Source: Octopus vulgaris
Lineage: Eukaryota
NCBI GenBank assembly: GCA_951406725.2
Contig: OX597829.1
Span: 11,904,001 to 11,968,000 of the forward strand
Length of the DNA stretch: 64,000 bases
Reading direction: 5' to 3'
Below are positions 8,205 through 37,969 of the stretch, in pieces (the first letter of the stretch is position 1; each line of letters starts with the position of its first letter). The notes beneath the pieces are model-generated. The model had not been told where the DNA came from. It searched no databases and worked only from the letters and a program-made list of their open reading frames with translations. Position numbers and translations under genes: made by a program.

Positions 8205-8382
8205 AATTGACCGTTATTTCTAAAGGGCCAATCAAACAAGTCCATTTTTTAAAGGTGTAGCGTTTGTAATAGTCTGGATAGAATTGACATATCGGTTCCA
8301 TTCTAGCAAAACCTGTCCGATGAACGGCAAAGGGAAACTCAAGGTAACAGGTTTTGTTGAATTTTCTGCTGCTTTAAATAAA

Positions 8383-8385
<3 letters not shown>
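8205..8385 (+). mobile_element. Hammerhead-bearing repeat (same family as 22750, 23515 and 37737), degenerate
   Basis: CAAAACCTGT-CCGATGA-acggcaaagg-GAAA-ctcaag-GTA-ACAGGTTTTG at ~8307-8356, followed by TTGAATTTTCTGCTGCTTTAAATAAAG as in the other copies; ends in (TA)n. Confidence 0.7.
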
Positions 8386-8424
<39 letters not shown>

Positions 8425-10059: not shown

Positions 10060-11195
10060 TATATCGTCAGCTACAGCCATCACAAATTAGTGATCTGTAC
10101 GCTCGACATAGATAGCATGTGTAGATGCTCTTGTAAGGCGCTCTATTTGCTGCCAAAAGCCACTGAAGAGTGGGTTAGGGATGTCGTGGCTAAAAATGCG
10201 CAGACATGCGCTCAGACATAGCCACCTCTGGTTTTACCTGGACGGTGAGCAGGTATGGTCTCCGTTCTTCAAGCTGTTATTTCCACAGTTCACATCGTTT
10301 ACCAAACTGAACCCAAGGATCAAGTGTAGATCGAGGTTGGGCGTGTGGCATGTAGAGAGCGGGCAACGCCGGTGGCGGGGGTACTACCGCGTTCTTCTAT
10401 AGAGGGTTAGTAGAGTTTAAGTGTGACGACGTCCTGGGAGAAACCCTAGGCTTCGACGAACGTTCTGTCCGGGGCCTATGGATAATTACCAAAAGTCCCT
10501 GGCCTGGCAGTGTTGCAGAGGAGCTTTACCGGTTCGAGTTAAGCTCTTTAGACATGGGTGTGCACCTTCGCCGCTTTGTGCGAGATGTGAGAGGGACAGT
10601 GAAACTGTCCTGCACGCGATTGTGCAATGCCCCAAGGCGACTGAACTCTGGGCTTATGTCGAACACCTGCTGTCGTATACGAGAAGAGTACAACTGTCGA
10701 GCGAATCTGTAATTAAGATAGTTCCAGCGACCTCCCTGAATAAGGAGGAGCGAGCCTGTTTTCTTTCGGTAGTTGCTGTGGCGAAACAAATAGTATGGAA
10801 GACGAGAGTGAAAGGAATTGCAACAGGCAATCGAGCTAATCGACCTTTTCGTTTTCCACATGAAACGGAAAATAAGGCTGGAGAAGAAATGCCTGTCGCA
10901 AAGTGTGTTTCGTAACAGATGGAAGTCTATAGGAAATATGTTGCGAGTGAAAGAACCTGTTTAATCGGGAATGTAGAAAAGGAGAAAGCAAAGTCTTCAG
11001 TGTGAGTATGTGGTTTGTGGGGTCGACCGCGTCCTCCGCTTCATTTTTTTGTTAATCACTCATCCTCACTTAATTGTATATATTTTAATTGTTTATTCAT
11101 ACGTTTCGTCTAATTCGATACCCTGACCCCAACGTTTGTTTTGTCTGTCCCCGTATTGTCCCCCTTTCCTCAACCTTATGGTGAATAAAGAAATA
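10060..11195 (+). mobile_element. Tx1-clade LINE family 1, deleted 3' fragment
   Basis: Homologous to 17036-17100 joined to the 18868 region. Peptides KMRRHALR, AWQCCRGALPV and CARC...ETVLHAIVQC (zinc finger). Ends GGTGAATAAAGAAATA directly into (CT)n. Confidence 0.88.
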
Positions 11196-11490
11196 CTCTC
11201 TCACTCGCTTTCCCTCTCTCTCATTCTCTCACTTTCTCTCACTCTCTCTCACTCTCTCTCTCACCTATTCTCTGTCTCTCTCTATCTCACACTCTCCCTC
11301 ACTCTCTCTCACCCTCTCTGTCTCTCACTCTCTCTCTCGCTCCCTCTCTCCCTCACTCTCTCTCTCACTCTCTCTCTCTCACTCTCTCTCACTCACTCTC
11401 TATCTATCTCATTCTCTCTATCTCTCTTACTCTCTCTCTCACTCACTCTCTCTCTTTCTCTCTCTCACTCTCTCTATCTCCCTCTCTCTC
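11196..11490. repeat. (CT)n/(CTCA)n microsatellite
   Basis: Seen directly in the sequence. Confidence 0.95.
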
Positions 11491-11789
11491 ATGGCTTGAC
11501 AAGGAACAAACAAGCTCAGTATTATTATTATGACTATTGTTAATATTATTAAAGATTTATTTATTAAGTAATGGTTATAGGGCGATCTTTCGGTATAAGT
11601 ACACACGTGGATTTGTTTACATTTCTGAAGATAACAGAAACACCTTTCTCCCACCTCCACCCCTAATCCTGAATAGTAAAGGGAACTAACTCTGTTATGT
11701 TTCAGTTCTCTCCCTTGATTATGAAGTTAAGAGAATATACAAATCTGGCGCGATTTAAACGTTTAATCTCTTTTACTTTCTTCAGTTAT

Positions 11790-12148
11790 TTGACTGCGGC
11801 CATGCTGCAGCAGTGCCTTTATTCGAGCAAATCGACCCCCCCCCCACAGGACTTATTCTTTGTAGGCCTATCGGTCTCTTTCGCCGCACCGCTAGTGTTA
11901 TGGGCAACATAAATACCCGCAACAGTTATCAAGCGATGTTTAGGGGAGAAACACAGATATACAAACATATACACACACACACATATATATACATATATAC
12001 ATACATATATACGACGGGCTTCTTTCAGTGTCCGTCTACCAAATCCACTCACAAGGCTTTGGTCGGCGCCAGGCTATAGTAGAAGACACTTGCCCAATCT
12101 TCCACGCAGTGGGACTAGAACCAGAACTCTGCGGTTCGTAAGCAGCCC
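11790..12148 (-). mobile_element. tRNA-derived SINE (family S1, resembling octopus OK-type), 5' end degraded
   Basis: Reverse complement of the 37970 SINE: B-box-like GGTTCTAGTCCCACTGCGTGG, GGGCAAGTGTCTTCTACTATAGCC, TTGTGAGTGGATTTGGTAGACGG and an internal (TA/CA) tract. Confidence 0.8.
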
Positions 12149-12159
12149 CTCCCACGTCT

Positions 12160-12930
12160 ATCAATTTCTTTCACTCGCTATATCTTGCCTCCTCTCTCTT
12201 TCTCATTGTCTTACTCTCTCTCTCCCACTCTCTCCATCTTACTCTCTCTCTCCCACTGTCTTTCGCAGAATGTAAACAAACACGAAATGGGGGATCTATC
12301 TCTCTCACTCTCACTCTCTCTCACTCTCTCCCTCTCTCTCACTATCACTCTCACTCTTTCACTCTCTCACTCTCTCTCCATCTTACTCTCTCTCTCCCAC
12401 TGTCATTCGCAGAATGTAAACAAACACGAAATGGGGGATCTATCTCTCTCACTCTAACTCTCTCCCTCCCTCTCTCTCTCACTCTTTCTCTCTCACTCCC
12501 TCTCATTATGTCTATCTGTGACACCCTCTCTCTCACTCTCTTTCTCTCACATTTTCTCACTATCTCTCACACTCTCTCTCTAATTCTTTCTCTCACGCTC
12601 TCTCTTTCTCATTCTCTCTCTCTCGCACTCTCTGTCACTCTCACTCTCAGTCTCTAACTCACTCTCTCTCTCCCATACTCTCTCTTTCTCACTCTCTCTC
12701 ATTCATTCTCTCTATCTCTCACTCTCTTTCTTTCACACTCTCTCACTATCTCTCTCACTCTCCCTCTCTCTCACTCCCTCTCTCTCACTATCTCTCTCTC
12801 TCTCACTGTCTTACGCAGAATGTGAACAAGCACAAAATGGAGCATCTATCTCTCTCACTCTCTCTCTCACCCTCTCCTTCTCTCACTCTCTATCTCACCC
12901 TCTCTCTCACTCTCACCTTCTCCTTCTCTC
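12160..12930. repeat. (CT)n/(CTCA)n tract containing three copies of a ~45-bp cassette
   Basis: CACTGTC..CGCAGAATGT(A/G)AACAA.CAC.AAATGG..ATCTATC at ~12255, ~12398 and ~12804. Confidence 0.9.
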
Positions 12931-14241
12931 CTCCGCAAGATCTAGGGTGCGGAAAGTCAGCTTCGGCGTATGCGGACGACATCACCATCATCGTTTCCCG
13001 AGTCGAGCACCTACAGTGGGTGGGTGAGGCCTTAAGGGACTACGAAGCGGTGGCAGGAGCGAAAGTCAACCGGGATAAATCGGTCGGCTTGCAACTCGGC
13101 ACCTGGAGGGGCAAGTCGATGTCTTCCGACAACGTCGTAGGACGTTGGACGGAAGGACCGGTGAAAATGCTTGGAATCTGGTTAGGTCCAGATCTCCAGA
13201 TAGAGAACTGGAGCGAGGTGGCGAAAAAGGTAGCTCTCCTAACTCAGACCTGGTCTGAGCGGAAGCTGTCCTTGAAAGGGAGGGAGGAGGTTGCAGAGGT
13301 GTTTATCGCCTCTGTAATCACTTACCGCCTGACCGTCGTGCCTTGCCCCGATTCGTGGCTGAACAAACTGGAACGCATGCTCTTTCGCTCTTTGTGGAGG
13401 GGCAGCAGACCTCTTGTAAGGCGCTCTATTTGCTGCCAAAAGCCGCTGAAGGGTGGGTTAGGGATGCCGTGGCTAAAAATGCGCAGACATGCGCTCAGGC
13501 TTAGGCACCTCTGGATTTACCTGGCAGTGTTACAGAAGAGCTGGCCTGGCAGTGTTACAGAAGAGCTTTACCGGTTCGAGATAAGCTCTTTAGACATGAG
13601 TGTGCACTTTCGCCGGTTTGTGCAAGATGTGAGAGGGACAGTGAAACTGTCCTGCACGCGATTGTGCAATGCCCCAAGATGACTGAACTCTGGGCTTATG
13701 TAGAACACCTGTTGTCGCATTCGAGAAGAGTACAACTGTCGAACGAATCTGTAATTAAGATAGTTCCGCCGACCTCCCTGAATAGGGAGGAGCGAGCCTG
13801 TTTTCTTTCGGTAGTTGCTATGGCGAAAGAAGTAGTGTGGAAGACGAGAGTAAAAGGAATTGCAACAGGCATGTTTATCTCCAGTCTCGAGCTAATCGAC
13901 TTTTTCGTTTTCCACATGAAACGGAAAATAAGGCTGGAGAAGAAATGCCTGTCGCAAAGTGTGTTTCGTAACAGATGGAAGTCTATAGGAAATATGTTGC
14001 GAGTGAAAGAACCTGTTTAATCGGGAATGTAGAAAAGGAGAAAGCAAAGTCTTCAGTGTGAGTATGTGGTTTGTGGGGTCGACCGCGTCCTCCGCTTCAT
14101 TTTTTGTTAATCACTCATTCTCATTTAATTGTATATATTTTAATTGTTTGTTTATTCATATGTTTCGTCTCATTCGATACCCTGACCCCAACGTTTGTTT
14201 TGTACCCTCTTTTTCTCAACCTTATGGTGAATAAAGAAATA
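12931..14241 (+). mobile_element. Tx1-clade LINE family 1, 5'-truncated copy flanked on both sides by (CT)n
   Basis: RT motif SAYADDITII, KLSLKGR, PLKGGLGMP; same 3' UTR and AATAAAGAAATA end as 11195; internal deletion plus 20-bp duplication at ~13520-13570. Confidence 0.92.
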
Positions 14242-14530
14242 CTCTATCTCACCCTCTCTCTCACACTCGCTCACTATCTCTCACTTTCTCTCTCTATCAC
14301 TCTCTCTCTGATTCTCTCTCTCACTCTCTCTCACTCTCTCGCTCTCACTCTCTCTCTCTCACACTCTCTCTCTCTCAATTTCTAACTCACACTCTCTCTC
14401 TCCTCACTCTCTCTCTCTCACTCTTTCTCATTCATTCTCGCTTTCACTCACTCTCCTTCTCTCTCACTCTCTATCTCACTCTCTTTCTCTCACACACACA
14501 CTCTCTCTCCCCCCCTCTCTCTCTGTCTCT
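14242..14530. repeat. (CT)n/(CTCA)n microsatellite between two Tx1 copies
   Basis: Seen directly in the sequence. Confidence 0.95.
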
Positions 14531-14659
14531 CTCGGTCGGACTCTTATCGGTCGTGTTATTCTTTGCTCCGCAGTGAAAGATTGTTTTTGTGCTGAAAATT
14601 GTGAAAATTTGCTGTTTTGGTCGGCGAGACCACTTCTCTTCTGCTGTTGAAACAGAGTA

Positions 14660-15993
14660 TTGCCGTTGTTTCCCCCTTGTTTCAAGGGGGAAGCGGCGAA
14701 AGACATGAATTTGTCACCAATTTCTTCCGAGTCCAAGGAAATCTTTGAAAATTTGTTTGAAGGCATAAAGGCGAATATGTGGGAGGAGGGCGGTAAAGAT
14801 ATAGAGGCGAATATGTGGGAGGAGGAAGGTAAAGGCATAGAGGCGAATATGAGGGAGGAGAAAGGTAAAGGTATAGAGGCGTCGCACGCGCTCGTTACAA
14901 AGGCAGACAACAAAATGTCTAGCGAGGAAAAGTCAAAAATTAATTTTGCGAGTGCAGCAACTCGCCCCTGTGAAAATATAGTCATAAACAAAGAAGATTT
15001 AAATAAATTCCAAGGACTACTAAAAAAAGAAGGTGATAATGTGAAGTTGCTCCCTCCCAGTGAATTAATTTACGCGACGGAGAGAAAAACTGATATATAA
15101 AACATATGTAAAAACTAAAAAAAATTGATTTCGTACCGAGGAAAGCGATAGAAAAATGATTGAGGCCGATATGGCAACAAACAAGCTATATAACGAGGGG
15201 TAGTCGCTTCGGCACTGTAGAGGTGCGTTTCCCTAGCGAAGAAAAAGCTAGGGAAAATTCAACAATGACATTGAAGTCGGAAGAAGTAGTTCTCCTGCCG
15301 ACTTACATAGGAAAGAGAACTTCAAAAATCACGGTCACTGATATACCACCCGAAATAGATGTGGCCTGGATGATAGCCGCTATTCTCATAGGCAAAGAAG
15401 AAGAAAGTTCAATTCTTCAATCTAAGAGATACCACCACATGAACTGGGTTGGACAAGATTTAGAGCTTGTCATCCAAGCAAACCCCTCAGACTTAGAAAA
15501 AATGCCCAGTTCCCTTACAATTGGAGAAAATACCAGCCTGATGGTGATAGTCGAGGGGAGAAAGCCCAGATGTTACAAATGTGGCGAGAAAGGTCACATA
15601 AGGTCGAGCTGTAAGAAGAAGACAGCCAAAGGAAACGCAACAGAAGAGGCAAGCACGACGCCGAAGACAACGACCACACCACTAGAAATAGCAGCCACGT
15701 CGTGCACACCAATTGCCGACAGCGGGAGAAAACAACAACAACAACAACAACCAGGAGTGGGTCACCGTGGAACCTTCAAAAAGATGGAAACGGAAAAACC
15801 CACTCTCTTCGGATACACAGGACTATGCTCCAAGACAGACAAGCACACCCACACCCACAAATACAGTCGCAAACACACACGTAGCCAAAAAACACACACA
15901 CTGGAAAAGGCACACACAAACACACATACACCTACCACAAGCACACACACCTACAAACACCGACGCTTCTACAAGAACACACACACCCCCACA

Positions 15994-16042
<49 letters not shown>

Positions 16043-16062
16043 ACCACAATCGCCTAATATAA
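14660..16062 (+). pseudogene. Tx1 ORF1 (gag-like, CCHC zinc knuckle), interrupted
   Basis: RGSRFGTVEVRF and CYKCGEKGHIRSSC; stop and frameshift near 15100-15160 and a frameshift near 15710. Confidence 0.85.
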
Positions 16063-16399
16063 AAAAGAGAAACACCTTCACGGCGATGAACAAAAATAAT
16101 AAACTATTAAGAGACCAAATTGTTTTAATGAAATCGGCGAAAAAATATATCGCAACAGATGTAAATAGTATTATTCTTGAAAATGTCGAATTTTATACCA
16201 TTTCGAACTAAAAAAATCTTTTGCGGAGGACGTCGGCCCGTTACAGATGAACTTTTCGAGCTATCTCTACAGACAATTCGCGAAAAAAAAAATGACCTCG
16301 CAAACCACAACGCTCACAGACAGAAAAGAGGAGGGTGAAACTACACCCTCTCTCCCGTTAAAACAATAAGTTTTAAACATTCGACTAATTTTTCACATT

Positions 16400-18930
16400 C
16401 TCGTTTAAACTCGGTTGTTTAAATATTCGCGGCCTGGGGTCGTATTGGAAGCAAGGCTGCCTACATCGTTTGGATGTAGTGGTAATTACCGAATCCAGAC
16501 TGAGTGGGCTGCAGGCTTTTTAACCCCTTCTAAACGGCTACGAGAAATACGTTTCTCCCTGTCGACCTGGAGGGGGCGGAGGAGTGGCAGTGCTGATCAG
16601 AATAAACCTGGATTTAGAGATTAGAACTGTCTTTATAGATCCGGAAGGCAGGTTAGTCGTTTTGGATGTGACGGATAGCAGTGGTAAAGTGTTCAGGCTG
16701 GTCACTGTCTATGCTCCCTGCGAAGGAAAAAGCCGAGCAGAAAGATTACTTCAAAAGCCTAGAGAATTTTATCGGCACGTCGAACACGTTAGTATTGCTA
16801 GGTGACTTCAATATAATTTGCGATGCACACGTAGATTATGCTGGCTCGAGAAAGAATAGGAGGGGATTACTTCACCTCAACGATCTGCTAAGTCGTTTCG
16901 AGTTGGCAGATCGATTAAGACTGGACAACCCAGACGTTCCAGCGTGGTCCTGGGCAAGAAACGACGGGTCGTCCAGATAGAATAGAATCATAACTACAAG
17001 GAAAGATAAGAAAATACTTAGCTGTCCACAACACCATATCGTCAGCTACAGCGGTCACAAATTAGTGACCTGTACGCTCGATATAGATAGCATGTGTAGA
17101 CGAGGTACCGGTTACTGGAAGCTAAAAAAAAGTCACTATTGGGCTGTGAAGCCTACAGGAATCGGATGAAACAATTAGTAATGTTGGCGTTAACCGGATC
17201 CATTATCAACAACAAATGGTGGTACGCCCTGAAAAGAGCTATCAAATTTGAGTCAATTAGGTTTAGCAAAGAACTAGCTAGTGCTAGAAACAAAGTAGAA
17301 AAGGAACTAGTTAAGGCAATAGATGAGGCAATGGGGTCAGTCAGTGCATCGAAAGTGTTAGCGGCGAGGTTGGCACTCAACCAACATCTCAAAGCTAAAC
17401 ATGAAGGGTGCATTGTCAGGGCTAAGATCCGTGCAATGAGACAGGAAGGGATCAACGCAGCCGGATGGGCCCGGGTGGTAGAGTGCCAGCGTGGCAACAA
17501 CTCAACCATTCGATCTTTGACGGACCCAAATGGTCGATCAGTAAACGAACCCGTGGAGATGTGCAAGGTGCTTCACGATCATTTCGCCCAGCTATTCGGG
17601 AGGATCGGCGGACTGGAGCGCGGGGAGAAGCTCGCAGACTTCCTAGCCGGTTCGCCACGTCTATCGAGGCCAGATGCGGAATCTTGTGAGGAACCGATCA
17701 CAGCCAAGGAAGTCGAGGATGTGTTGGCAGACTGTGGCGGGGACAAATCGCCGGGACTCGATGGTCTGCCTCACGAACTCTATAGTAGCATGCCAGACTT
17801 GTTTGAGCACCAACTTGCATGCGTGTACACCAACTGGCAGCAGAACGGGAGAATTCCTAAGTTTGTGAGCCGAGGGGTGGTAGCGCTGTTAAGAAAGGAT
17901 CCAAACAAGGGGGATTCCATTGATAATTTTCGGCCCATCACTCTGCTTAACGCAGAGTTGAAGATTTTGGCCAAGGTCTTAGCAAAAAGGTTGGCGCGGG
18001 TCGTGGGTGAACTTGTTGGCGAGGCGCAAACTTGCGCCATCTCTGGAAGGAGCATCCACGACAATCTCCACTCTCTACGCTATGCCTTAGAAAACGTAAA
18101 TAGGATTCCTGGCAAGGGTGGGGCTGTGGTCCATTTGGACCAATCGAAAGCGTTCGATAAGGTGGACCATCAGTATCTGGCGGCGGTCCTCGCGGCGGCT
18201 GGCTTCGGCCCGACCTTCCGCGAATGGATCAACGCTTTATACAGCAATATCGAATCGGTAGTTCGGGTGAACAGTTTCTTTTCGGAGCCGTTCCGCATTG
18301 AACGTTCAGTACGTCAAAAGTGCCCTCTCTCCCCGCTTCTCTACGTTTTGGCCCTTAAGCCGTTGCTGAGGAGGTTGGAAACTATGAGGTGCACTCCGCG
18401 AGATCTAGGGTGCGGAAAGTCAGCTTCGGCGTATGCGGACGACATCACCGTCATCGTATCCCGAGTCGAGCACCTACAGAGGGTGGGTAAGGCCATAAGG
18501 GATTACCAAGCGGTGGCAGGAGCGAAAGTCAACCGGGATAAATCGGTCGGCTTGCAACTCGGCACCTGGAGGGGCAAGTCGATGTCTTCCGACAACGTTG
18601 GACGGAAGGGCCGGTGAAAATGCTTGGAATCTGGTTAGGTCCAGATCTCCAGATAGAGAAGAATTGGAGCGAGGTAGCGAGAAAGATGGCTCTCCTAACT
18701 CAGACCTGGTCTGAGCGGAAGCTGTCCTTGAAAGGGAGGGCGAAGGTTGCAGAGGTGTTTATCGCCTCTGTAATCACTTACCGCCTGACCGTCGTGCCTT
18801 GCCCCGATTCGTGGCTGAACAAGCTGGAACGCATGCTCTTTCGATTTTTGTGGAGGGGCAGCAGACCTCTTGTAAGGCGCTCTATTTGCTGCCAAAAGCC
18901 GCTGAAGGGTGGGTTAGGGATGCCGTGGCT
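16400..18930 (+). pseudogene. Tx1 ORF2 (APE endonuclease plus reverse transcriptase), frameshifted
   Basis: DPEGRLVVLD, TVYAP, LLGDFN, GYWKL, KSPGLDGLPHELY, NFRPITLLNAELKILAK, LDQSKAFDKVDH, VRQKCPLSPLLY, AYADDIT. Confidence 0.92.
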
Positions 18931-19129
18931 TTATTCAGATATTTTATTAGCTGCTTCAATTGCAGAGGAATAACTTATTGGATGAAAAAGTTATCTGTGA
19001 CCTGACTACTTTTCAAACTTTCTCAACTATGCTTTCTCAATATGATGATGCAATACTTTCACTCTCAATATGATGATGCAATACTTACAATATAATGAAG
19101 TCAAACAGATAGTGAGAAATCGAGAAATT

Positions 19130-21220: not shown

Positions 21221-21726
21221 TCTATATATATAAAACTCTAGTTGTGTGAGTGTCTGTCCCCTTCGATTTAGATTCCTAACTCCTCCCACATTTTGCGGTG
21301 CAGTTTAACCAAATTCGGGTATCTTATAGTCGTGATTCATATCGAGCCCGTCTGACTATTAGCGCGCGTCAACGATGAGTCTACGATTTTAAAAATAATT
21401 TAACATCATTTTTTATTCCATTTTAATGCATAAAATGCATCGTATGTCGATGGCGGCGGAGTTGGCGTCCACGCTCACAGCTGCACCTGTTTGCTTCTCC
21501 CCCTTCCCTCCCTCGTGAAGCTGTGGGGAAGGGAGTGTAAAGAAATCAACGTCGTAATGCGTTGTGAAGGAAACCAGCGTTCTTTTAGAACAACGACTTC
21601 ATGGCTTGAAGACACCAAAACAAAAATGGCTAAGAAAGCCCGAATTTATAAGGGAAGTAACTCTCTAAAAATGCTTATATAGTTATTTCCCTTACAAACC
21701 CGAGCAACGCCGGGCGATACTGCTAG
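21221..21726 (+). mobile_element. Non-autonomous Helitron inserted in (TA)n
   Basis: 5' TC (TCTATATATATAAAAC) after an A; subterminal hairpin CCCG-A-GCAACGC-CGGG (21699-21714); CTAG 3' end followed by T. Confidence 0.8.
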
Positions 21727-21911
21727 TATATATATATATATATATATATAGTTATCGCCATACTAATATGGCATTCTTATAAAAATAAGAAAAAAGCTGT
21801 CCGCTTATTAGCTCCATGAGGCCATCGCCTTAAGTTAGCTATTTGATACACAAACTGTATCCATATAACCTTCGAACAATGGAGGTCAGTCGCTCCACAC
21901 TACTTGACCGG

Positions 21912-21962
21912 CAGCTACAGACGCGTTTCGGAGTATTGCCCCTTTTCAATGCAGCGTAGCCA
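21912..21962 (-). ncRNA. Minimal type-I hammerhead ribozyme motif (U3-A8 core variant)
   Basis: Reverse complement of the 22453-22502 motif. Confidence 0.65.
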
Positions 21963-22452
21963 GCCAGTAGGTGTCGCTTCCGACAATCTCTGTTCGATGG
22001 TTTTATTTACCTAGTTTCGGTGGAATACATTCACTTGTTTTCAATAATAGAAATATTAAAATTACTAAGTCTCTCTAAAAGAGAACAGCGGCAGCGTTCC
22101 CGGAAAATAATAGTTATCGCCATACTAATATGGCATTCTTATAAAAATAAGAAAAAAGCTGTCCGCTTATTAGCTCCATGAGGCCATCGCCTTAAGTTAG
22201 CTATTTGATACACAAACTGTATCCATATAACCTTCGAACAAGGGAGGTCAGTCGCTCCACACTACTTGACCGGCAGCTACAGATATTAGTATGGCGATAA
22301 CTATTATTTTCCGGGAACGCTGCCGCTGTTCTCTTTTAGAGAGACTTAGTAATTTTAATATTTCTATTATTGAAAACAAGTGAATGTATTCCACCGAAAC
22401 TAGGTAAATAAAACCATCGAACAGAGATTGTCGGAAGCAACACCTACTGGCT

Positions 22453-22502
22453 GGCTACGCTGCATTGAAAAGGGGCAATACTCCGAAACGCGTCTGTAGC
22501 TG
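22453..22502 (+). ncRNA. Minimal type-I hammerhead ribozyme motif (U3-A8 core variant)
   Basis: ggctac..tgca-TTGAAAA-GGGG-caata-CTCC-GAAA-CGCG-TC^-tgtagc; palindromic ACGCGT in place of stem III; GUC cleavage triplet. Confidence 0.65.
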
Positions 22503-22749
22503 CCGGTCAAGTAGTGTGGAGCGACTGACCTCCCTTGTTCGAAGGTTATATGGATACAGTTTGTGTATCAAATAGCTAACTTAAGGCGATGGCCTCATGG
22601 AGCTAATAAGCGGACAGCTTTTTTCTTATTTTTATAAGAATGCCATATTAGTATGGCGATAACTATTATTTTCCGGGAACGCTGCCGCTGTTCTCTTTTA
22701 GAGAGACTTAGTAATTTTAATATTTCTATTATATATATATATATATAGT

Positions 22750-23731
22750 TTATTTAAAAGCAGCAGAAATATAACAAAAGCTGTTACTCAGAGTTTTACG
22801 TTCCCGTTCGTCGGACAGGTTTTGTTAAAATGGAACAGAAATAACGATATAATCAAAACTAGTTAAAGGATACACTTTTAAAAATGGATTTGTTTCATTG
22901 GTCCTTTCAATTGACGTAATATGTTACACATATTCCGTCACCTATCTCTCTTTCTTTTTTCTTTCTTTCGCAAAGTATCATTTCTCTCCCTATTCGTTAC
23001 TTTGAAAGCGTCCTTAAACAATGCGTTCCTCTTCTGCCGCCTTTACCGCTTTCTTTCGCTAGGATTCTTCTTATTTTCTTTTTCTTCCCCCCTCCCTACG
23101 TTTAAGATATACTTCTTGCCTAACTTGTCTGTTATAACTGACTTCTATATGTATACACCAAGAGATTTTCGTACACGGGTATGGTTGCGTGCATATGTGT
23201 ATATGTGTACTTGTGCGTATATTCATATCTTACATTTATATGCCTGTATATGTATGTAACTATGTGCATGCATCTGTGTATTTTGATGTATATATGTATA
23301 TTATAGATTGTCTAGTGTGGGTATATACTGTTGTAAAATATTTATGTAATGCAGCGTGAAAATTTTAATTTATTAATCGACTTATATTTCGTATATAATT
23401 ATTTACAATATGTATTTTAAATCCACTCTTCGATTTAAGGTTTTCCTCGATTTTTATAATAGGATGAATTTATATTGAATTCATTTATTTTGTTCATTGC
23501 ATGCTTAAGACCGTTAATTGAAACGCCCAATGAAATAAATCCTTTTTTTAAAGGTGTATCCTTCAACTAGTTTTGATTATATCGCTATTACTATTCCATG
23601 TTAACAAAACTGTTCGACGATCGGGAACGTGAAACTCTAACAGCTTTTGTTATATTTCTGCTGTTTTTAAATAAAGCATATTACTCTACCTCTGGTATTT
23701 GAGTACTCTTTTTTCCACCTTGTTTCACTCC

Positions 23732-23732
<1 letters not shown>
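22750..23732. mobile_element. Penelope-like relic with ~170-bp inverted arms, each carrying a degenerate hammerhead
   Basis: 22750-22917 and 23512-23676 are diverged reverse complements. Motifs at 22773-22826 (minus) and 23601-23652 (plus) give consensus AACAAAACCTGT-CCGAYGA-ACG-GGAA-CGT-GAAA-CTCWGAG-TA-ACAGSTTTTGTT. Confidence 0.7.
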
Positions 23733-23813
<81 letters not shown>

Positions 23814-23974
23814 GATGGTTTGTTGCCAACTTAATGATGCAGTCCCAGGAGAGGGAAGAATGCTACTGCTACTTAGCCCAGTAAACAGCGTTTCCAATTG
23901 GCTATGTGACACAGGCGTACTATCTCGTTATGTCTTCAAACAGGGGAGACAAGCACCTCCACCCAGCAAACCCA

Positions 23975-24023
23975 GTACCCAGAGACTAGTTTCAGAGTCA
24001 TCGCTCTTCATCAGTGTGGAGTA
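23975..24023 (-). ncRNA. Minimal type-I hammerhead ribozyme with canonical core
   Basis: tactccaca-CTGATGA-AGAG-cgatga-CTCT-GAAA-CTAG-TC^-tctgggta; palindromic ACTAGT. Confidence 0.78.
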
Positions 24024-24591
24024 GCTTGGTTTGCTAACTGTCGAAAACATATAGAATTCACTGAACTACAAACTTAGAAATATTGCATTTCTAAATATCA
24101 CAGAGAGATTTAGGCAGTAGCAGCACGGTAAAGTGATGGTTTGTTGCCAAGTTAATGTGGCAGTCCCAGGAAATGGAAGAATGCTACTGCTATTTAGCCC
24201 CAGAAAACACCGTTTCTAGTTGGCCATGACACATTTTCTGTGTCGTTATGTTTTCAAACAGTGGAGACAAGCATCTCTACCCAGCAAAGCCAGCATCCAG
24301 AGACTAGTTACTGTCATTGCTCTTCACCAGTCTGGAGTAGCTTGGTTTGCTAGCTGTCGATGATTATTCACCTTTGAAAACATATGGACACAGTACGCTT
24401 GTGTCGCTTAGCCAACTAGGAACAGTTAACTGGGGCAACAAACCATCACTTTACCGTGCTGCTACTGTATAAGTCTCTCTGAGAGATTTAGAAATGCAAT
24501 ATTTCTAATTTTGTAGATCGGTGAATTTATTTCACTTGAAATTTTGTATGTTTTCAAAGGCAAATAAACATCGGCAGCTAACTAACCAAGC

Positions 24592-24639
24592 TATTCCAGA
24601 CTGGTGAAGAGCAATGACTCTGAAACTAGTCTGTGGATA
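24592..24639 (+). ncRNA. Hammerhead motif copy with A6>G
   Basis: tattccaga-CTGGTGA-AGAG-caatga-CTCT-GAAA-CTAG-TC-tgtggata. Confidence 0.6.
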
Positions 24640-25486
24640 TTTGGCTTTGCTGGGTGGAGGTGCTTGTCTCCCCTGTTTGAAAACATAAGGACACAAAACG
24701 CTTGTGTCACATAGCCAACCTGAAACGGTGTTTATTGGGGCTAAATATCAGTAGCATTCTCCCCTTTCCTGGGACTGTCACATTAAGTTGACAACAAACC
24801 ATCATTTTATCGTGCTACTACAGTATAAGTTTCTCTGAGGGATTTAGAAATGCAATATTTCTAATTTTATACACACACGCACACACACACATATAAGCAA
24901 CAGCTTCTGCGTATGTAGATACTTCCCTCTCTTTTTATGATTATTCATATCACTAGCGAACTATAATGCTTAGATATATGCAAATGTAGCCTATTTAAGA
25001 CTTCATTGATAATGGCATATAACCATGAAAAACATCAGTACATGTCAAAGTGACAAAGAAATGAGAAAGGAGGTCGTGAAATGAGTTAAAAACAACAGCT
25101 TAATCGCCCTTAAGTCACACACACAAAAGATTTTGTTTCTGCTTTTCATTATCATATAAATTCCTGTGTCCCCAAAGTAAAGAAAAGTTATGAGGGGGTT
25201 ATATGGGGTGTTTAAACTAGAATTTCGCCCAACTATTTAATTATTTATAACATACTGATGAAATCAACATTTTCCAAGATCTGTCTTTCAAAGGCGAACG
25301 CTCGAACGTGCATGCACCCAAGTAAAAGCTCATCCCAGCGCTTAATGATACGGTTAACTGCCGCGTAAAACCTACCAATTTGAAACTAAAAAAGGCAAGT
25401 ATTCCCTGATTGCAAATTAAAAGCAAAATACAAAAAAATATATGTATAATAACAAAAATAAAACGTCCACGTTTTATAACAATTGG

Positions 25487-28379: not shown

Positions 28380-31300
28380 TGGCTGTCTCCCCACGAGCCA
28401 ATCAAAGCTCAAAAAGGATAACATTATCGTAGCACCAAAATGTTTTTGGAAACTAAAAGGAAAACTAAATCAGTATACCAAATTGCTTGTCCTATGGTTA
28501 ATCTGGAAGCGCGTCCCCCAGAGAAGAGCCAGCCTGGGGTCGAAAAGTCATCAACTGGCACAAACTCTTCTCCGAATACGGACATGGATGGTCACTTGAA
28601 CGGGAAATCCCCCAACTCGAGGGCTCCAAGTTCACCACCAGAACCACCACAGAAAGAAAATGTAAGCGGAACAAATGGACCCGAGAAGAGTATAAAGAAG
28701 TAATACACGCTTATTACTATGCATTAGGTAGGCCATCTCAAGAGAGACACACCGCAAACTCTTACAGTAACACGGAATCAAGACAGTAGGCCCTATTTGG
28801 ACGAGAACAACTTAGCAAATGTGAGGAGGGATATCCTTAGAAATAACAGACTCACAGACAGTGAAATAAGCGCGATCAAGCACGCAACGGAAAATGACAT
28901 AAATATAAGACACAAAGGAAATGAAGAATCAGATGAACAGTATAGCCCGCCACGAGGCTTAATTGAAAGACTGTCATCTGACCAAAGTACGCAAAGGCCT
29001 GAAGATACAAGAAATTCTATTGTACCTGTTAAAGATAGCCAGGAAAACGAAAAAACAACAGTAACTGAAGATCTCGCATTTGCTGAAGAACACAGAGAGT
29101 CTATGGCAGAAATGAGGCAGAAAATCCTGAATACGCTTGAAGTTGTAAGACATACAAGTATGAATGATAGAGAACCACTTCATAAACTCTCAAATACAAA
29201 CCAAAATAAAAAACAAATCCAAATTGGCAACTATGTAACAAATGAAATAATACGAGAATTAAAACCTGATTTTACTGAGTTAAATGAAATTATATACGCT
29301 TCTGCTAGGGCAATTGAAACCAGCTGTATGCCCCCGAAAAAACAAAGAAAACCAAACCTGGGAAGAAATCAAACCTGGAGAAGTAAAATTGAAAAAGAGA
29401 TTGAATTTATGAGAGGGGAAATATCAATATTAAATGAACTAATATGTGGAAATGATGTAAGATCCAGAACAGGAAGAAAGATGAAGAGAAAATTTGGATC
29501 CTCACCAAGAGAAGAACTGATATCAATAAAAGAAACGCTGAAACAAAAAGTCCAAGCAAAAGCCCAAAGAATACGAAGATTTGAGAAGAGAAACAAGTTT
29601 TACAAGCAAAATAAGCTGTTCACATCCAATGCCAAAAAATTCTACAGAGAAATAGGGAAGGAGAAAGTAACCGCTAAAGACCCCCTCCCATGGAAGAAGT
29701 TCAAAACTTTTGGAAAAGGATTTGGAGTGACAAGAAGACGTACAACATAAATGCAGACTGGATTATACAAACTGAAGGATCCTACCAAAATTTACAACAA
29801 GCATGGGAAGACATCACAATAGCAGACCTAAGAAAGGCACTCACGAAGGACCATAATTGGAAATCCCCCGGTAAAGATAGGGTGCCGAATTTCTGGCTCG
29901 CATCGCTCCCATGCGCACACGGTAAGCTAGTTCAGCTGCTCAATGGAATTATGAGAGACCCAAAGAAAACACCTGAATGGTTAGCAAGTGGTATTACTTA
30001 CCTACTCCCAAAGAACAACGAAACCAACCTTCCAAAAAACTATCGGCCTATCCACCACCACGTATAAAATCCTAACATCTATCCTGGCGGAGAAAACATA
30101 TGCATTCATGGAGAAGGACGATATTTTCCCCATTGAACAAAAAGGGTGTCGCCGAGGCTCTTACGGATGCAAAGATCAACTGCTAATTAATCGTATGATC
30201 CTTGAGAACTGTCACAACAAGCGCAGAAATCTCAGCTCCGCATGGATTGACTATAAAAAGGCCTTCGACAGTATACCGCATCCATGGATCTTGAGATCGC
30301 TGGACATCTTCAAAATTTCCCCTGTGATTTCAAGCTTCCTGAAGCACAATATGTCGTTGTGGAATACGAATCTCCAATTATACCACTCTAATGGAGTACT
30401 TGCCTCAGAAAATATAAACATCAACTGTGGAATTTTTCAAGGTGACTCACTTTCACCTTTAATATTCTGCATAGCCCTAATACCCCTTACAAGTGAATTA
30501 AACAGAACAGGGTATGGGTATAAAATTGCCAATAAAAAAATAAGCCATCTATTTTATAAGGATGACTTAAAACTCTATGGTAAAGACAATAATGAACTTG
30601 AAGGCCTATTGCGCACTGTGAAAGCATTCAGCGATGACATCGGGATGGAGTTTGGACTTGAGAAGTGTGCCAAGGCCACTTTCCAGAAAGGGAAAGTGAA
30701 GACCACAAATTCAGTCGTGTTAGATGTTGACACAGTCATAAGAGAGCTTGAGCAAGAACAAACATACAAATATTTAGGGATAAATGAAGGCTCTGGTATT
30801 CAGCATGCAAGCATGAAAGAGAAGATCAAGAAGGAATGTTATAGGAGAGTTCGTGCAGTCCTGAAATCTGAACTAAATGCACGTAACAAGGTGTTAGCTA
30901 TAAATTCCTTAGCAGTTCCAGTTGTTACTTATAGCTACAATGTGTTGAACTGGAATATGAGTGAAGTAAAGAATATAGATAGGAAAATACGCAAGCTGCT
31001 GAGTTGTAATAGGATGCACCACCCAAAGGCAGACGTAGATCGCCTTTACCTTCCCAGAGCCCAAGGAGGTCGAGGCCTGATCCAATTTGAATTAGCTTAC
31101 AAAACAACCACAATTGGACTGGCCAAATATCTCGAAATAACGAATGACTGGATGCTGAAGCTCGTGGAAAATCACGAGAGACGAAAGAAGCTTCATTCTA
31201 TCATAAAGGAAAGCAAAAAATTTGCTATTGATCTCGTGCAGGATACCCAAACTGAACAACCCGAGGGAAGTACGGCAACTATTATTGCAAAGAAGGTGAA

Positions 31301-32277
31301 AATAATGGCAACGAAAAAAGCGCACGAGCAATTGGCTGATAGGTGGGAGGAGAAACCTCTGCACGGCAAATATATGGCCCGCAGCAAACAAGCTGATGTT
31401 GACCAGAAGCAAACCCATCAGTGGCTACGGAGCTCAGGGCCAAAAGCAGAGAGCGAAGGTTTCATCCTGGCTGCTCAAGATCAAAGCCTATTAACCCGGA
31501 ACTACCAGGCCAATGTGATGAAAAATGGAGCAGACCCAAAATGCCGATTCTGCAACGACATGATTGAAACTGTGGACCACCTAATCTCTGGATGTAAAGT
31601 CTTAGCACCAGTGGAGTATAAATTAAGACATGACAGAGTTGACCAATATCTACACTGGCTAATAAGTCGGCATTACAATATCAAAGCTGCCGACAAGTGG
31701 TATAATCACCACCCTGAGGCTGTAACTGAAGGAGAAAATGTAACCATTCTGTGGGACTTTCCAGTACATACAGACCGAACCATCAAAGCCAATAAACCAG
31801 ATAGTGTTGTGAAAGACCAAAACAATAAAGTTTGCTTATTGATCGACATGAGCATCCCCTGTGATCATAATATCTCAGCGAAAGAATTTGACAAGCTCAG
31901 AAAATATAAAGACCTACTCATTGAAATTGAGAAAATGTGGCATCTCAAGGCGGTTACAATACCAGTGATCGTAGGAGCACTAGGAATGATCAAGAAGGGA
32001 ACCGAAAATTATATGAGAATGATCCCTGGCTTACCATCCCTGCAAGAAGTGCAAAAGATTGTCTTAACTGGTACATCACATGTATTGAGAAGGGCATTGT
32101 CGATGTGAGAACTGTTGCTGCTCATGTATTTTAATTTAATTAAAAAAAAAAAAAAAGAATGAACTATTGATTTTGGATTAATGGCCTACCAATGTATACT
32201 ATGAGTTTCTTTGCCCTAGGAGTCGGGAAGACACTCGGCAAGAAATGGAAGCAAATTTGAAAGAAGAAAAAAAAAGT
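28380..32277 (+). mobile_element. R4/Dong-type family B, near full-length single ORF with a few lesions
   Basis: N-terminal [55 protein letters not shown] (mutated YMDD), CRFC..H..SGC, RHD, KPD; stop at 32108; 3' UTR runs into (TAA)n. Confidence 0.95.
29988..32108 (+). pseudogene. RT + CCHC + restriction-like endonuclease reading frame of family B (706 aa open)
   Basis: ORF track; separated from upstream pieces 28797-29750 and 29690-30067 by frameshifts. Confidence 0.9.
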
Positions 32278-32298: not shown

Positions 32299-32633
32299 AG
32301 ACTAAAACAATACCTATTGTCATAGGTGCCCTGGGAATGATAGCAAAAGGGGCTGATTGCTACCTAACTCAGATACCAGGAAACCCCAAAATGGCAGAAA
32401 TTCAAAAGATAGTGCTCATGGCAACTGCTCATGTCCTACGCAAAATACTTTCTATGTAATCTCAAGGTTTAAAACAAATATTTTTTTTAGACATCCACTA
32501 ATACAACACAAAAAACAACCAAATATATGGCACACTAGGCATAACAACAACGTGAACTTCCAACCTGTTGTCTCTTGAGGTCTCTGGGTGAGACTTGGAG
32601 CCAACTTGTACAGACATAAAGCAAAAGTCAAAC

Positions 32634-32637
<4 letters not shown>
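32299..32637 (+). mobile_element. R4/Dong family C, short 3' fragment between (TAA)n tracts
   Basis: TKTIPIVIGALGMIAKG...ILSM* and a 3' UTR shared with 44391 and 60384. Confidence 0.9.
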
Positions 32638-32683
<46 letters not shown>

Positions 32684-32686
<3 letters not shown>

Positions 32687-35600
32687 TCTTGTTTTATTGG
32701 CCACATGAAATGACAAACAGAGGACGATAAAAACAAATGGTTTTGCAAAAAGAAAAGTCCGTGTAAACATATGGTAACAAGAAAAATTTAACAGGTAAAA
32801 AGAACTCCCAATAGGGGAAGGCACATTGAAAGTTATTTGTGGAAAACCCCATAAAAGCCACAGGTGCCTGATCAACAGGGTGAGAGCCCCTTGTCCATTT
32901 ATATTCCTTTTGTTTTACAGGTGTAATCTCAGAATTGTTTCGTCCATACTGGCCATTCTTCCGACATTCACCCACCTTTTAATAAATTTGCTACAAGATT
33001 ACACTTCCCCCTCTTCTCTCATCTTCCTTTTCAAGTGGAACTTGAAAAAGTTAACGAGGCCTTGGCCAAAGAGGGAAGTGTCTGATTTTGGCCCTTTCAA
33101 ACGGGGCCACCATACCACCTCTTTCGCCACAGCCACTAGACAAATGAAAATTTTCCTTCCCCTCCCAGTTAGAGGAGGTCGGCGGGGCAAGCTTCACTAT
33201 GGATTCAGCTGATAGCCGGATCTGTCCTACACGCGACAGCAGCTGTTCGACATAAACCCTCAGGTCAGCAATGCTCGGGCACTGGACTAGTGTGTGCAGA
33301 ACGATTTCGTAGTTCTGAGCGCACCTCGGGCGGGCCCAGCTGGCGGCACTTCCTGCCGGTAGAGTTTATTCCGAACAGGTAACGCCCCCCGGTAGCACTG
33401 CCAGGCGAGGGACTTTTGGAAGCTATCCATGGGCCTCGGCCTGAAAGTTCTCCCAAACAGACTGCTTAGCTGGTCATCGTCGACGTCTAGAGTTTCCCCG
33501 AGAATGTCGTTGCACTTTTCCTGTACTAACCCTCTATAGAACGCTACTACCGATCGCATTGCCCGCCTGGAGGAAGACTGTGAGAGCTTGACGGCTTGAT
33601 CCAAGATTGCAGCTCGGTCAAAGAGACGAGCTGCGGAAAGGAGAGTCTGACGAACGGCGACCACACCTGCTCACCGTCCAGGAAACGCTTGAGATGCCGT
33701 AGCCTGAGCGCATGTCTACGCATCAGCAATCACGGTATGCCAAGGCCTCCGTTCAGCGGCTGTTGACAGCAGATAGAGCGCCTGACCAGTGGTACCTGAT
33801 CCTTCCACACAAATTGGAAGAGCAAACGCACCAGCTTGGCCAACAAGCGGTCGGGTCAAGGGACGACGGTTAAGTGGTAATAGATGACGGATGCGATGTA
33901 CGCATTCTCCACCCCGGTTCGACCTTTCAGTGACAGCTTCCTCTCGGCCCATTTCTGGGTGATATTGGCTACCATGCTTGTCACCTCGTCCCAGTTTTGC
34001 TCCACTTGGAGGTCCGGACCGAACCAGACCCCGAGCAATTTAACGGGACACTCTGTCCAGCGCCCCACGACGCTGTTGGACGGCATGGACTTGCCTCTCC
34101 AGGTGCCCACCGATTTTCCGCGTTAATTTTCGCATCTGTCACCGCTTCGTACTCGCTTAGCGTCTCGCCAATCAGGTCGATGTGGCTCGACACAATCATG
34201 GTGATGCCGTCGGCATAGGCAGACACGATCTTTCCACATCCCAGATCACGCAGGACACCCCTGAAAGCCTCCAATTTCCGCAGTAATGGTTCGAGAGTCA
34301 ATACGTAAAGGAGGGAGGAGAGAGGACATCCTTAGTTGACCGAAAGCAAGATGTTGAACGGCTCCGACAGGTGACCGTTCACCCGTATGACCGAGCAGAT
34401 GCCACTGTACAAAGCAGCGATCCACCCACGGAAGACCGGACCGAAACCAGCTGCCTTGAGAGCAGCTCTCAAGTATCGATGGTCGACCCTATCGAAAGCT
34501 TTAGACTGATCTAAATTGATCAAAGCCCCACCCTCTCTATGATGTAGCGCATGAAATGTAGGTTGTCGTGGATAGACCTGGTCGGGACGGCGCGGTTTGC
34601 GCCTTGCCAATCAGCTTGTCAACGACAAGCGCTAAGCTTTTGGCTCACACCTTGGCCAAAATCTTCAACTCTGCATTGAGCAGAGTGATGGCCGAAAGTT
34701 CTCTAGTGTTTAGCAGCACTCTGCCTCGTTGGCTGAGAGTCGCGGCAGGCCGACCAGGTACATACCGAAATTTGTCCCGTTGTCCGTCCCACCGCTCGTC
34801 CCCAACAGTCGAGCAGACTACTGCTGAAAGGCCGCACACATCTGTTTCGGTTCAGAAACCTCTCTCCCGTTCTGGTCCACCAAAGACCGAATGGTTGCCC
34901 TGTTGCCACGCTTCGTCTCCGCTACACGGGCCCATAGAGCGGCTTTAGTCCCCTCTTACCGAACGTGTCTTAGCTCTCTCAACGCAGCCTTCGTGTTTGG
35001 CGTCGAAGTGTTGGTCGAGGGCCTACCTGGCCTCCAATACGTCGGTCGCGATGCCTGTCCTAAGAGCCTCGTCTAGTTTTTTTTAACTAAACCTCGCTCT
35101 ATTTTCTTTGTTTCTACATCTAGAGCCCTACTAAACCTAATCGACTCTACTCTAATTGCTCTCTTGAGTGCAAACCACCAGTTGTTGTTGATGATTGCCC
35201 CCGTGAGTGCCCGCTTAACTAATAAGCTAATTCGGTCTCTGTAAGCTCTGCACACCGCTAACGATGCGTTTAGCTCCCAGTAACCGGGACCCTGTCTATG
35301 TAGCCTATCTAAGTCGACCGTACAGATCACGAATTTGTGGTCCGAGTAGCTGACTATGTGGAATTGTGGACACCCTATGCTGTCCTTATCCGCCGGCCTG
35401 CAGAAAACTCTAAGTACGATCTAGACGACCCGATGCGATTAGTCCAAGTCCACATTTGCACATTCGGGTTGTCTAGTCGATACCTGTCAGACAGTTGAAA
35501 GCGTCTGAGCAGGTTGGTGAGGCTTTTGCACCCCACTCTCCTATCAGATGCTCTCACGCCTACCCGATCGAAACGTTCGTCTAAGACAACGTTCCAATCC

Positions 35601-37650
35601 CCAACTAGCACTGAAGTGCGAGATGTACCCAGGAAAACCTTGAAATAATCCGACTGCCCTGATCCTGTCGGAGCATAGGCAGCCATCAGTCTGAAGGCAC
35701 CGCCGTCACTACTGTTCGCATCCAGGACCGCCAACTAACCATCCTGATCCAGGAAGACTGCCTTTATTTTCAAAGTCAGGCCTTTCCAAAATAGCACCGC
35801 AGTAACACCACTGCCCGCTCCAGGCCGACACAGAGGTAGAAAATCTCGTATCCGCCAAAAAGGGCTGCGAATTCCCGTGGGTCGGAGAGCCTGGTTTCGC
35901 TAATGGCTGCTACATCCACATTGTAAGACCTTTAGGGCGTTTAAGAAGTGACCTTGTTTTCAAGGCAACCCGAGGTCCCTCACATTGATGCTACCGATTC
36001 TGAGCATAACCATGTCGAAAAAGAGTTATGCAGGAGAAAATGCTCTACTTACCGCCGTTTTCTGGTGGGGTGACTCTCTTATGCTTTCGCGTGGGTATTT
36101 CCACCAAATTCTGGTATAATTTTTTCGAGAAACTTTTCCCGAGCGACCTAATATCATCTGGATATTTGTTCTTTATTATCTCGTAGTTTTCTTGTGTTAT
36201 TCTGAAACTGAGTATGTGTGCTGGTGGTGTGACGAAATCTGCCATTGTGATGTCTGTGTTTTCTTTTAAGTAGATTACAAGGTTTTCATTATTTATGTTT
36301 ATTGCTATGATGTTTGTATTGGTGGTGGTGGTGGTGGTGGTGATGTTGTCTGTGTGTTGTAATTTGTGTTGATGTTTGCGGTGGTAGTGCTGGAGGTGTT
36401 GTTGTTGTTGAACGTTGTTGAATGCATGTTGCTGTTGTTGTAGGGAAGCTCTGCTTTCTCGCGCCTCCTCACTTCATCGATTCTCTTTAGTTTTTTCTCT
36501 TCTTTTTCGGTGGTACGGTGTGCCACTCCCCCTTCTCGCTATCAGTGCTCGCACTGTCCGAGCTGATTTGGGGTCCGTTTAAACTCTTTCTAGTGTAGCT
36601 TCATTTGTTATTGAATGTGGTGCTGTTGTTGTTGGTGGTATATTTATCCTGGCCAGTGTCATCGACGTCAGTGTTGGACTGGTGATGGTAGGAGGTGGTG
36701 TCGCTTTTGTTGGTGGTGTTGGTGGTGCGGAAGCTTTTGTTCTCTGCCTCCGCTGCGTCTCTAGTTGTTGGTGTTTATTGCTGCTGCTGTTGCACTGAAG
36801 ATGTATCTGATACTGGCGCCTTCTTTCTGCCTCCATTCTCCCCTTGTATATGGGGCAATCCAATTTTAAATGTTTTTCGCTGCTGCAGAGGTAGTACTTT
36901 GGTTGTCGCCCCTTCACAGCAACGTGCAACCTTGTGCTGTCTGGTGTGGAGTAGGGTTTGGCATTTATGCTTTCTTGTTCAATTCGAACGAGAAGCTGCA
37001 TACCCATACCCGACCAGTTTTAACTGCAATTTGTGCACTTTTAAAACTGTGGCAGTGTCCTCTATGTCTAAGAGGACAGCTACCACTAGCCAGCATATAC
37101 TGAGTTCAGGTGGCACTTGCTCTATTTTTATTTTTGTAACGCGCCGACCAAGGTATGTCGGCACGAGCAGCAAATCCTCAGTTTTTAAGGGTACTGTGGA
37201 ATGCTGCTTTGCGTTCTTTTCAGTTGGGAAGCGAACTTCTACAGTTCCAAATCGTTTCCTCGCTTCCCCTTGGTTACATATTATTTCTTTGCCCGTATCG
37301 GCTTTAGCACTATCTCCAACTGCTGTGGCGTTGCCCCTTCTACTTTTTTGTGTTTTATGTTGAAAATTTTGTCGAAAATATGGTCCTTTTGTTTGTTTGA
37401 TATAGCAGTTGTTGTGCAGTGTTAAGGAAGACGTTGTTTCCATCTTTCTTTAACAAATCCTTTGCATTTTTAATATCGTCCATTGTGACATCGATTTCCT
37501 CCGAGCAGTGGCAGATGCCAAAACAAACAAACAACATTTAAAGCTTCAGCTCCAAGAACGCTAGGGCAAGAGTAAAACAACAAACGGAGTGGCAGTGAGT
37601 GACAGTCAGAGGTGGCTAATTGCAGGAAAACTGTTATGAGCTCTGAATTC
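32684..37650 (-). mobile_element. Tx1-clade LINE family 2, full-length but degenerate, 3' end abutting (TTA)n
   Basis: ORF1 pieces RKRFGTVEVRF and YYLCSSEKHLKLDCP; APE pieces (AYAP, LVGDWN, GPGYWELN); RT pieces (LDQSKAFDRVDH, SAYADG, KLSLKGR, AWQCYRGALPV); ends CCAATAAAACAAGAATTT then ATT repeats. Confidence 0.92.
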
Positions 37651-37736: not shown

Positions 37737-37891
37737 AAAATTCAACAAAACTTGTTACTCTGAGTTTCAACGTGAAACTCAGAGTAACAGGTTTTGTTGA
37801 ATTTTCTGCTGCTTTAAATAAAGCATATTACTCTACCACTGATATTTGAGTACTCTTTTTCCACCTTGTTGCCCATTTATGTGTTTACTCC

Positions 37892-37892: not shown

Positions 37893-37969
<77 letters not shown>

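Follow-up and report, generated by a model that had tools for sequence, protein, structure and literature searches.

How did a 362-nt unit without coding capacity come to lie, as two arms pointing away from each other, inside a run of TA repeats? The question is raised by an element, here called F1, at 21748-22732 of the 64,000-nt stretch of Octopus vulgaris DNA analysed (the window). The first-pass annotation had described a 362-nt unit present as minus and plus arms joined head-to-head, with about 2 mismatches and in a (TA)n setting, and the window sequence bore this out: 2 mismatches were counted over the whole element, and the copies differ from one another at 21975 and 21880. The arms abut by their 5' ends at 22283, a base common to both, which was taken as position 1 of the unit. 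Of the bounds first proposed, the right end at 22732 was retained and the left end was moved, as the unit match reaches 21748 rather than 21751. The unit had also been called ORF-less, and in tandem form its longest ATG ORF was found to have 30 codons, with a GC content of 41%. No Pol III A/B box was found when one was sought in the F1 unit. Because (TA)n overlaps F1 by 3 nt at each end, a target duplication is unreadable.

Table 1. Positions of the parts of F1, its hammerheads and the sister element F2 (window coordinates unless unit positions are given).
Feature	Position	Strand	Description
F1 minus arm	21748..22283	-	536 nt, 1.48 units; unit 211-362, 1-362, 1-22
F1 plus arm	22283..22732	+	450 nt, 1.24 units; unit 1-362, 1-88
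Site A	unit position 22		outer end of F1 minus arm
Site B	unit position 88		outer end of F1 plus arm
Minus-arm head	22265..22283	-	3' half of hammerhead; starts 2 nt before predicted cut
F1 tail	22667..22732	+	66 nt between sites A and B; plus-arm outer end only
Left (TA)n target	21727..21750		overlaps F1 end by 3 nt
Right (TA)n target	22730..22747		overlaps F1 end by 3 nt
Complete type I hammerhead	22447..22511	+	distal helix, internal loop UAC/U, helices I-III
Helix I, plus hammerhead	22459-22464 with 22495-22500	+	GCUGCA with UGUAGC
Core U3-A9, plus hammerhead	22465-22471	+	
Helix II, plus hammerhead	22472-22484	+	4 bp, loop CAAUA
GAAA, plus hammerhead	22485-22488	+	
Helix III, plus hammerhead	22488-22493	+	palindrome ACGCGU
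C17, plus hammerhead	22494	+	predicted cut directly after
Second complete hammerhead	21903..21967	-	sequence identical to plus copy; U3 at 21949, C17 at 21920
F2 minus arm	23808..24384	-	decayed, about 1.8 units; aligned outer end at F1 unit position 28
F2 minus hammerheads	C3 at 24014 and 24330	-	CTGATGA; CTGGTGA with helix II broken
F2 plus arm	24373..24870	+	about 1.4 units with a single internal deletion; aligned outer end at site B
F2 plus hammerhead	C3 at 24601	+	CTGGTGA

Each arm of F1 covers the same unit positions twice, which argues for a template that repeated every 362 nt. A truncated ordinary ORF-bearing element cannot give this arrangement; it would go from its tail into the ORF, unlike the F1 arms. 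The identical units in both arms would fit either a circular or a tandem template. Both arms also carry the allele at 22031 (unit position 101), which makes up only ~0.2% of family depth in public sequencing runs, and this common rare allele suggests that the two arms derive from one source. Only 2 changes private to F1 were seen in 986 nt (21880 and 22439), which points to a young insertion and agrees with the recent mobility first proposed.

The two arms each contain one complete hammerhead motif. A full type I descriptor, which permitted five 3-8 pairs, gave exactly two matches on both strands of the 64 kb window, at +22465 and -21949. The motif TTGAAAA-GGGG(CAATA)CTCC-GAAA-CGCG-TC, which the annotation had assigned to each full unit, was present at these positions; complete hammerheads are restricted to the two, one per arm. 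Core 3-9, G12-A14, A15.1-U16.1, H17 and three helices with helix I open were all found, and the 3-8 pair is U-A. Among 5000 dinucleotide shuffles of the F1 unit, one gave any match, and none gave a match with helix I of at least 6 bp and helix II of at least 4 bp. The motif is far beyond chance, and the call of a type I hammerhead with a U3-A8 core is supported. When the whole unit was folded as a circle, pair probabilities were 0.94-1.0 for helix I and 0.91-1.0 for helices I and II taken together; the fold had a z of about -5.1, and none of 150 shuffles was equally stable. The stem gctac/gtagc, initially named as closing the motif, received a pair probability of 0.0 and was replaced by the predicted helix I, GCUGCA/UGUAGC.

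The hammerhead had been described as minimal. Minimal hammerheads are defined by a helix II of 7-8 bp, a helix I of 4-5 bp and an extra base after A9 (PMC4209133, in part). In F1, helix I has 6 bp, helix II has 4 bp and no extra base follows A9, and by the definitions in the accessible text of PMC4209133 the build predicted from the sequence is canonical metazoan instead. The U3-A8 core is a natural variant, with about 1,300 matches in Schistosoma (PMC4209133, in part), and is likewise reported as natural, and active in vitro, in PMC3088659; it is therefore already published and not new. An Rfam search at E<=10 returned 14 matches with no hammerhead family among them; CUGANGA-only searches had been named at the outset as likely to miss the element. 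Co-folding of two 65-nt copies produced a double hammerhead (-54.9 vs 2 x -24.4 kcal/mol) with a 6-bp intermolecular helix III and both cores free, consistent with the idea of a palindromic helix III that acts in a dimer. Dimeric Penelope hammerheads were reportedly the subject of a 2017 paper in RNA Biology. The cut is predicted after C17 at 22494, the position named at the outset. Two consecutive motifs on the same strand are absent at the F1 locus; with one complete hammerhead per strand, no monomer release in cis is expected.

A sister element, F2, was found at 23808-24870, 1.1 kb from F1, with the same inverted two-arm layout and in TA-rich repeats. F2 and F1 are collinear over the entire unit at ~66% identity (alignment score 178 vs a shuffle maximum of 85.5, n=200). 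The three F2 copies agree at 191 of 237 gap-free columns and carry 13-16 private changes each; on its sequence, F2 is older than F1. With 16, 13 and 15 shared sites, the three F2 copies gave no reason to group two of them more closely, and such a grouping was abandoned. Damage is evident in each of the three F2 hammerheads, which share C3-G8 and the palindrome ACUAGU; A6G is present in two of them. Between F1 and F2, compensatory changes were observed at 6 of 16 pairs, namely three in helix I, the 3-8 pair, one in helix II and one in helix III. In the alignment of five copies, which has 4 distinct rows, pairing holds in 91.9% of the 62 cells. Compensation at six pairs was reached by 2 of 500 shuffles and slid controls gave 0-1, a count that is not a probability, because the covariation spans two lineages only and the structure was drawn from F1. 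No family members beyond F1 and F2 were found with nhmmer over the window, where the next match had an E of 0.05.

Several other repeats surround the pair. Positions 1-6975 are a tandem array with a period of 1336 nt, about 5.2 copies that are 95-98% identical and internal inverted similarity; the ORFs scanned in it gave no Pfam match. Between two TA runs at 21221-21726 lies an element of ~500 nt that begins TCTATATATATAAAA and ends in a short GC hairpin plus CTAG, and which we take to resemble a non-autonomous Helitron. A MITE-like element with terminal inverted repeats of ~175 nt (87% identical) occupies 22743-23681, adjoining the right side of F1 in the same TA nest, and has a related copy near 8209-8412. 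The segments 23626-23809 and 37769-37969 have a 200-nt stretch in common (86%), each ending in (TA)38, and look like a TA-associated element end. A short repeat family of SINE-like look, partly tandem, is present at 39190-39593 and 41778-42091; these repeats were scanned for the hammerhead core and it was absent. Two LINE copies, 98% identical and set in (AAT)n, were seen at 28728-32108 and 60833-64000 (presumably of an R4/Dong-like clade), and domains from the ORF scan indicated further LINEs at 10100-19000, 32600-36000 and 52300-55700, which we assume to be L1/Tx1-like. An ORF of a LINE near F1 shows 99% identity, across 27% of its length, with a predicted protein of Octopus vulgaris (one of 24 matches), in keeping with a probable Octopus host.

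The wider family was followed in public sequencing runs. Between 60 and 80% of the element's words were found in 20 of the 24 runs listed (9 studies, 5 organism labels); no RNA run was listed among those carrying it. Four runs, all in the form of assembled contigs, were mapped to one unit (21833-22194), and 1812, 2522, 3 and 5 contigs fitted it, figures that do not represent copy number. The 362-nt head-to-tail joint was present in all four, and longer head-to-tail arrays elsewhere are likely, judging from these joints. U3 (21949) and A8 (21944) were free of listed variants in all four runs, so U3-A8 is the majority state of the family. The absence of variants from the 42-nt core was alone not significant (P 0.11). 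For the unit as a whole, 18 of 32 variant rows were kept, being those at 5% or more in run X1 or X3; of the 14 dropped, one (21880) occurs in the window alone, and the other 13 attained 5% solely in individual contigs of the small runs. Ten of the 18 fall on unpaired positions, six keep a pair and two break a weak pair; ~40% breaks were expected (binomial P 0.009, with sites that are not independent). Depth in X3 was low over the ribozyme (80% of the run, filters applied). X5, whose RNA nature is a guess, has a closed contig of 392 nt that is equally compatible with a circle and with tandem DNA, since contigs alone cannot separate an RNA circle from tandem DNA. Neither metagenome contigs nor viral contigs contained a locus matching the pattern when scanned for it.

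The outer ends of the arms recur. Those of F1 lie at unit positions 22 and 88 and those of F2 at aligned positions 28 and about 89, an agreement with a rough chance of 5e-4, for windows chosen after the data were seen. In both X1 and X3 the largest rise in summed depth was at the bin starting at 22106 (positions 26-14, site A), and bins 22041 and 22054 (positions 91-66, site B) were among the top five rises; depth of this kind does not measure copy number, and the end of a contig may be no more than a graph break. One contig fuses to (TA)n at 22105 (position 27). In X5, a record of 83 nt shows the inverted layout in miniature, its two arms reaching to 87 and 24; the joint of this record is also present in X3. 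The whole pattern agrees with two putative fixed 3' ends, separated by 60-66 nt, of which each arm has one.

Such an insertion resembles those of Penelope-like elements, which form partial tandems with an inverted 5'-truncated copy at microsatellite targets and carry a tail of 30-40 bp, often at one end only (PMC8557442, in part). F1 and F2 both have the inverted 5'-truncated copy, the partial tandem, the one-sided tail and the microsatellite target, with a tail of 60-66 nt that is longer than the 30-40 bp given in the available text. A Penelope protein was shown in vitro to nick AT-rich DNA on both strands, to extend both, and to use two internal start sites that bound the tail (PMC11167929, in part). 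A helper is plausible, as 30 recently active Penelope families are reported for O. vulgaris (PMC13282606). The window itself gave no GIY-YIG or Penelope-type domain in 109 of its 202 non-repetitive ORFs of at least 70 codons, a sample that covered all regions.

The domain matches obtained in those 109 ORFs were of LINE type (RVT_1, zf-RVT), and this abundance of LINE reverse transcriptases would suit a different origin, in which a LINE of RTE, R4/Dong or L1-Tx1 type inserted F1 through twin priming, at points where its RNA happened to have microhomology with the TA repeat. The plus-arm head (position 1) is 22 nt from the minus-arm outer end (position 22), a head/end geometry that the twin-priming model would give, and 3 nt of TA overlap each end. 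The heads of F2 depart from that geometry, however, neither a poly(A) nor a common LINE tail is present, and the same two ends occur in a sister of 66% identity and as depth steps in two runs. A LINE origin is accordingly considered extremely improbable, and the ends are read here as those of a Penelope-like mechanism.

If the enzyme was Penelope-like, the unit might still be part of an ordinary Penelope-like element. No ORF with RT plus GIY-YIG was found within F1, which is not an autonomous Penelope element. The unit could instead belong to a multi-unit pLTR array of an autonomous element, with this locus doubly 5'-truncated and falling short of the ORF. Every insertion feature matches Penelope elements (PMC8557442, in part), 190 families of Penelope-like sequence account for 6.83% of the O. 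vulgaris assembly (PMC13282606 supplement), and Xenopus retrozymes match pLTRs (10.64898/2026.07.22.740005, in part). Against this, the terminal repeat would have to hold at least 2-3 identical 362-nt units, and the minimal build prevails among metazoan pLTR hammerheads in the accessible text of PMC4209133, whereas the hammerhead of F1 is canonical. The share of contigs continuing into unlike sequence was 0 in three of the four runs, and the 13 loose ends listed were all diverged unit sequence or (TA)n; the contigs are short (listed pieces up to 392 nt), with 170 more loose ends beyond those listed, and a link to an ORF could hide there. On balance a pLTR array was judged unlikely, and F1 is treated below as a non-autonomous element.

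Three inversion joints were found in contigs, with heads at unit positions 192|343, 52|344 and 341|300 (21940|22151, 22080|22150 and 22153|22194). One side of each lies at unit 341-344, at the foot of a hairpin at 340-358; this clustering may possibly mark a stall or switch point, or be a mapping effect of the hairpin. The F2 junction is at a self-complementary stem (24373-24384), away from the cut site. As this junction and all three contig joints are away from the cut, the start of the F1 minus arm is no evidence for cleavage. The inversion junction as a mark of the cleavage site was dropped, since the 5 junctions, including one at the reference edge, provide 10 heads, and a single head was within 2 nt (chance ~13%).

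This lack of clustering of junction heads at the cut site is what would be expected if F1 was mobilised by Penelope with a hammerhead that no longer cuts, being copied from uncut linear tandem transcripts with neither monomer nor circle. Further points in that direction are A6G in two of three F2 copies, the eight of nine Xenopus dimers left uncleaved in vitro (10.64898/2026.07.22.740005, in part), and the use of unprocessed RNA by the anole Penelope protein, for which in vitro insertion did not need cleavage (PMC11167929, in part). Such a loss of function fits poorly with the compensatory F1/F2 changes in the core and in helices I, II and III, with family variants that avoid pair breaks, and with U3-A8 cores reported as active in vitro (PMC3088659). 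It was considered very unlikely, and a hammerhead that is predicted to cut is retained.

Small ORF-less tandem units with one type I hammerhead each are known as metazoan non-LTR retrozymes, of 350-390 bp in mussel and 330/350 bp in axolotl (Cervera and de la Pena 2020, PMC7229834, in part). F1 shares this build, together with a strongly self-paired predicted circle and a mollusc host, and its weak palindromic helix III is like the axolotl motif. The non-autonomous retrozyme kind first suggested for the locus is supported by the ORF-less head-to-tail unit with one type I hammerhead: the unit is within the ~150-450 nt of the class, coding capacity and LTR are absent, PBS and PPT presumably so, and GC is below 50% (on the 30-codon ORF and a GC of 0.41), and the family is multi-copy and dispersed, as seen from the 1812 and 2522 contigs in two DNA runs. 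In contrast to the elements in the accessible text of PMC7229834, F1 has a U3-A8 core, an inverted two-arm insertion and fixed ends, and its monomer has no stem pair beyond A15.1-U16.1/C-G. Cleavage and circles were shown for those retrozymes; in F1 cleavage is predicted and circles may form.

Animal retrozymes have been proposed as non-autonomous Penelope derivatives by Li, Clavereau and Pollet (2026, 10.64898/2026.07.22.740005, in part), who found one of nine Xenopus retrozyme dimers to be cleaved in vitro. F1 belongs to the same class, has the same proposed helper and a unit length in range. The evidence in the accessible part of that work is co-occurrence and pLTR phylogeny, mainly in vertebrates, with satellite-type expansion discussed, while that for F1 is an insertion footprint. 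An element counts there as active when two consecutive units have complete motifs, an arrangement that the F1 locus lacks. With Penelope-like elements F1 has in common the partial tandems, the inverted 5'-truncated copy, the tail at one end and the (TA)n target (PMC4209133, PMC8557442 and PMC11167929, each in part), and with their pLTR hammerheads the type I fold and palindromic helix III, as well as the U3-A8 of Schistosoma (PMC4209133, in part). It is unlike them, as far as the accessible texts describe them, in lacking an RT/GIY-YIG ORF, in its canonical hammerhead and in a tail of 60-66 nt against 30-40 bp. The class is a known one: there are published descriptions of retrozymes, of U3-A8 cores and of the Penelope pattern. 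Neither a cephalopod retrozyme nor the footprint argument was found in a literature search from whose scope most subscription papers, repeat databases and the PMC7229834 supplement were outside, and the O. vulgaris repeat paper (PMC13282606, text and supplement) does not mention ribozymes.

Taken together, F1 is probably a young non-autonomous non-LTR retrozyme that was copied into (TA)n by a Penelope-like RT/endonuclease, with cutting predicted. A head-to-tail ORF-less unit in a large family is the starting point. Tandem copies would be transcribed, and neighbouring hammerheads are predicted to pair via ACGCGU and to cut after C17, releasing 362-nt monomers. A host ligase may circularise these, and the lone hammerhead in a circle would be poorly active. 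A Penelope protein acting in trans would then nick both strands of AT-rich DNA and start reverse transcription from two fixed RNA sites about 60-66 nt apart, one per strand. Each cDNA would exceed one unit on the periodic (circular or tandem) template, and the two would be joined at their heads. The product, as seen at the locus, is two outward-pointing arms of which just one ends in the tail. The sister F2 and this fixed-end (tail) pattern supply most of the mechanistic evidence.

A more specific scheme is offered tentatively and is itself rather doubtful. The two sites would form a conserved Penelope start signal, and one protein dimer would prime both strands of a TA break, one per site, on the same circular RNA; the insertions would then be footprints of circle-templated retrotransposition, in sister families that swapped the 3-8 pair (C3-G8 to U3-A8) and the palindrome.

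Retrozyme copying in animals has so far been a hypothesis based on co-occurrence and phylogeny (PMC7229834 and 10.64898/2026.07.22.740005, each in part). The ends of F1 and F2 carry the marks of Penelope insertion and point, at single-base resolution, to two candidate start sites, in a large family that escapes Rfam and CUGANGA searches. Comparing the two elements also amounts to a swap experiment, done by nature, on the hammerhead 3-8 pair and on the dimer palindrome. The value of F1 would lie in the sequence evidence it brings to retrozyme copying, and what most deserves following is the sister pair together with the two fixed ends.
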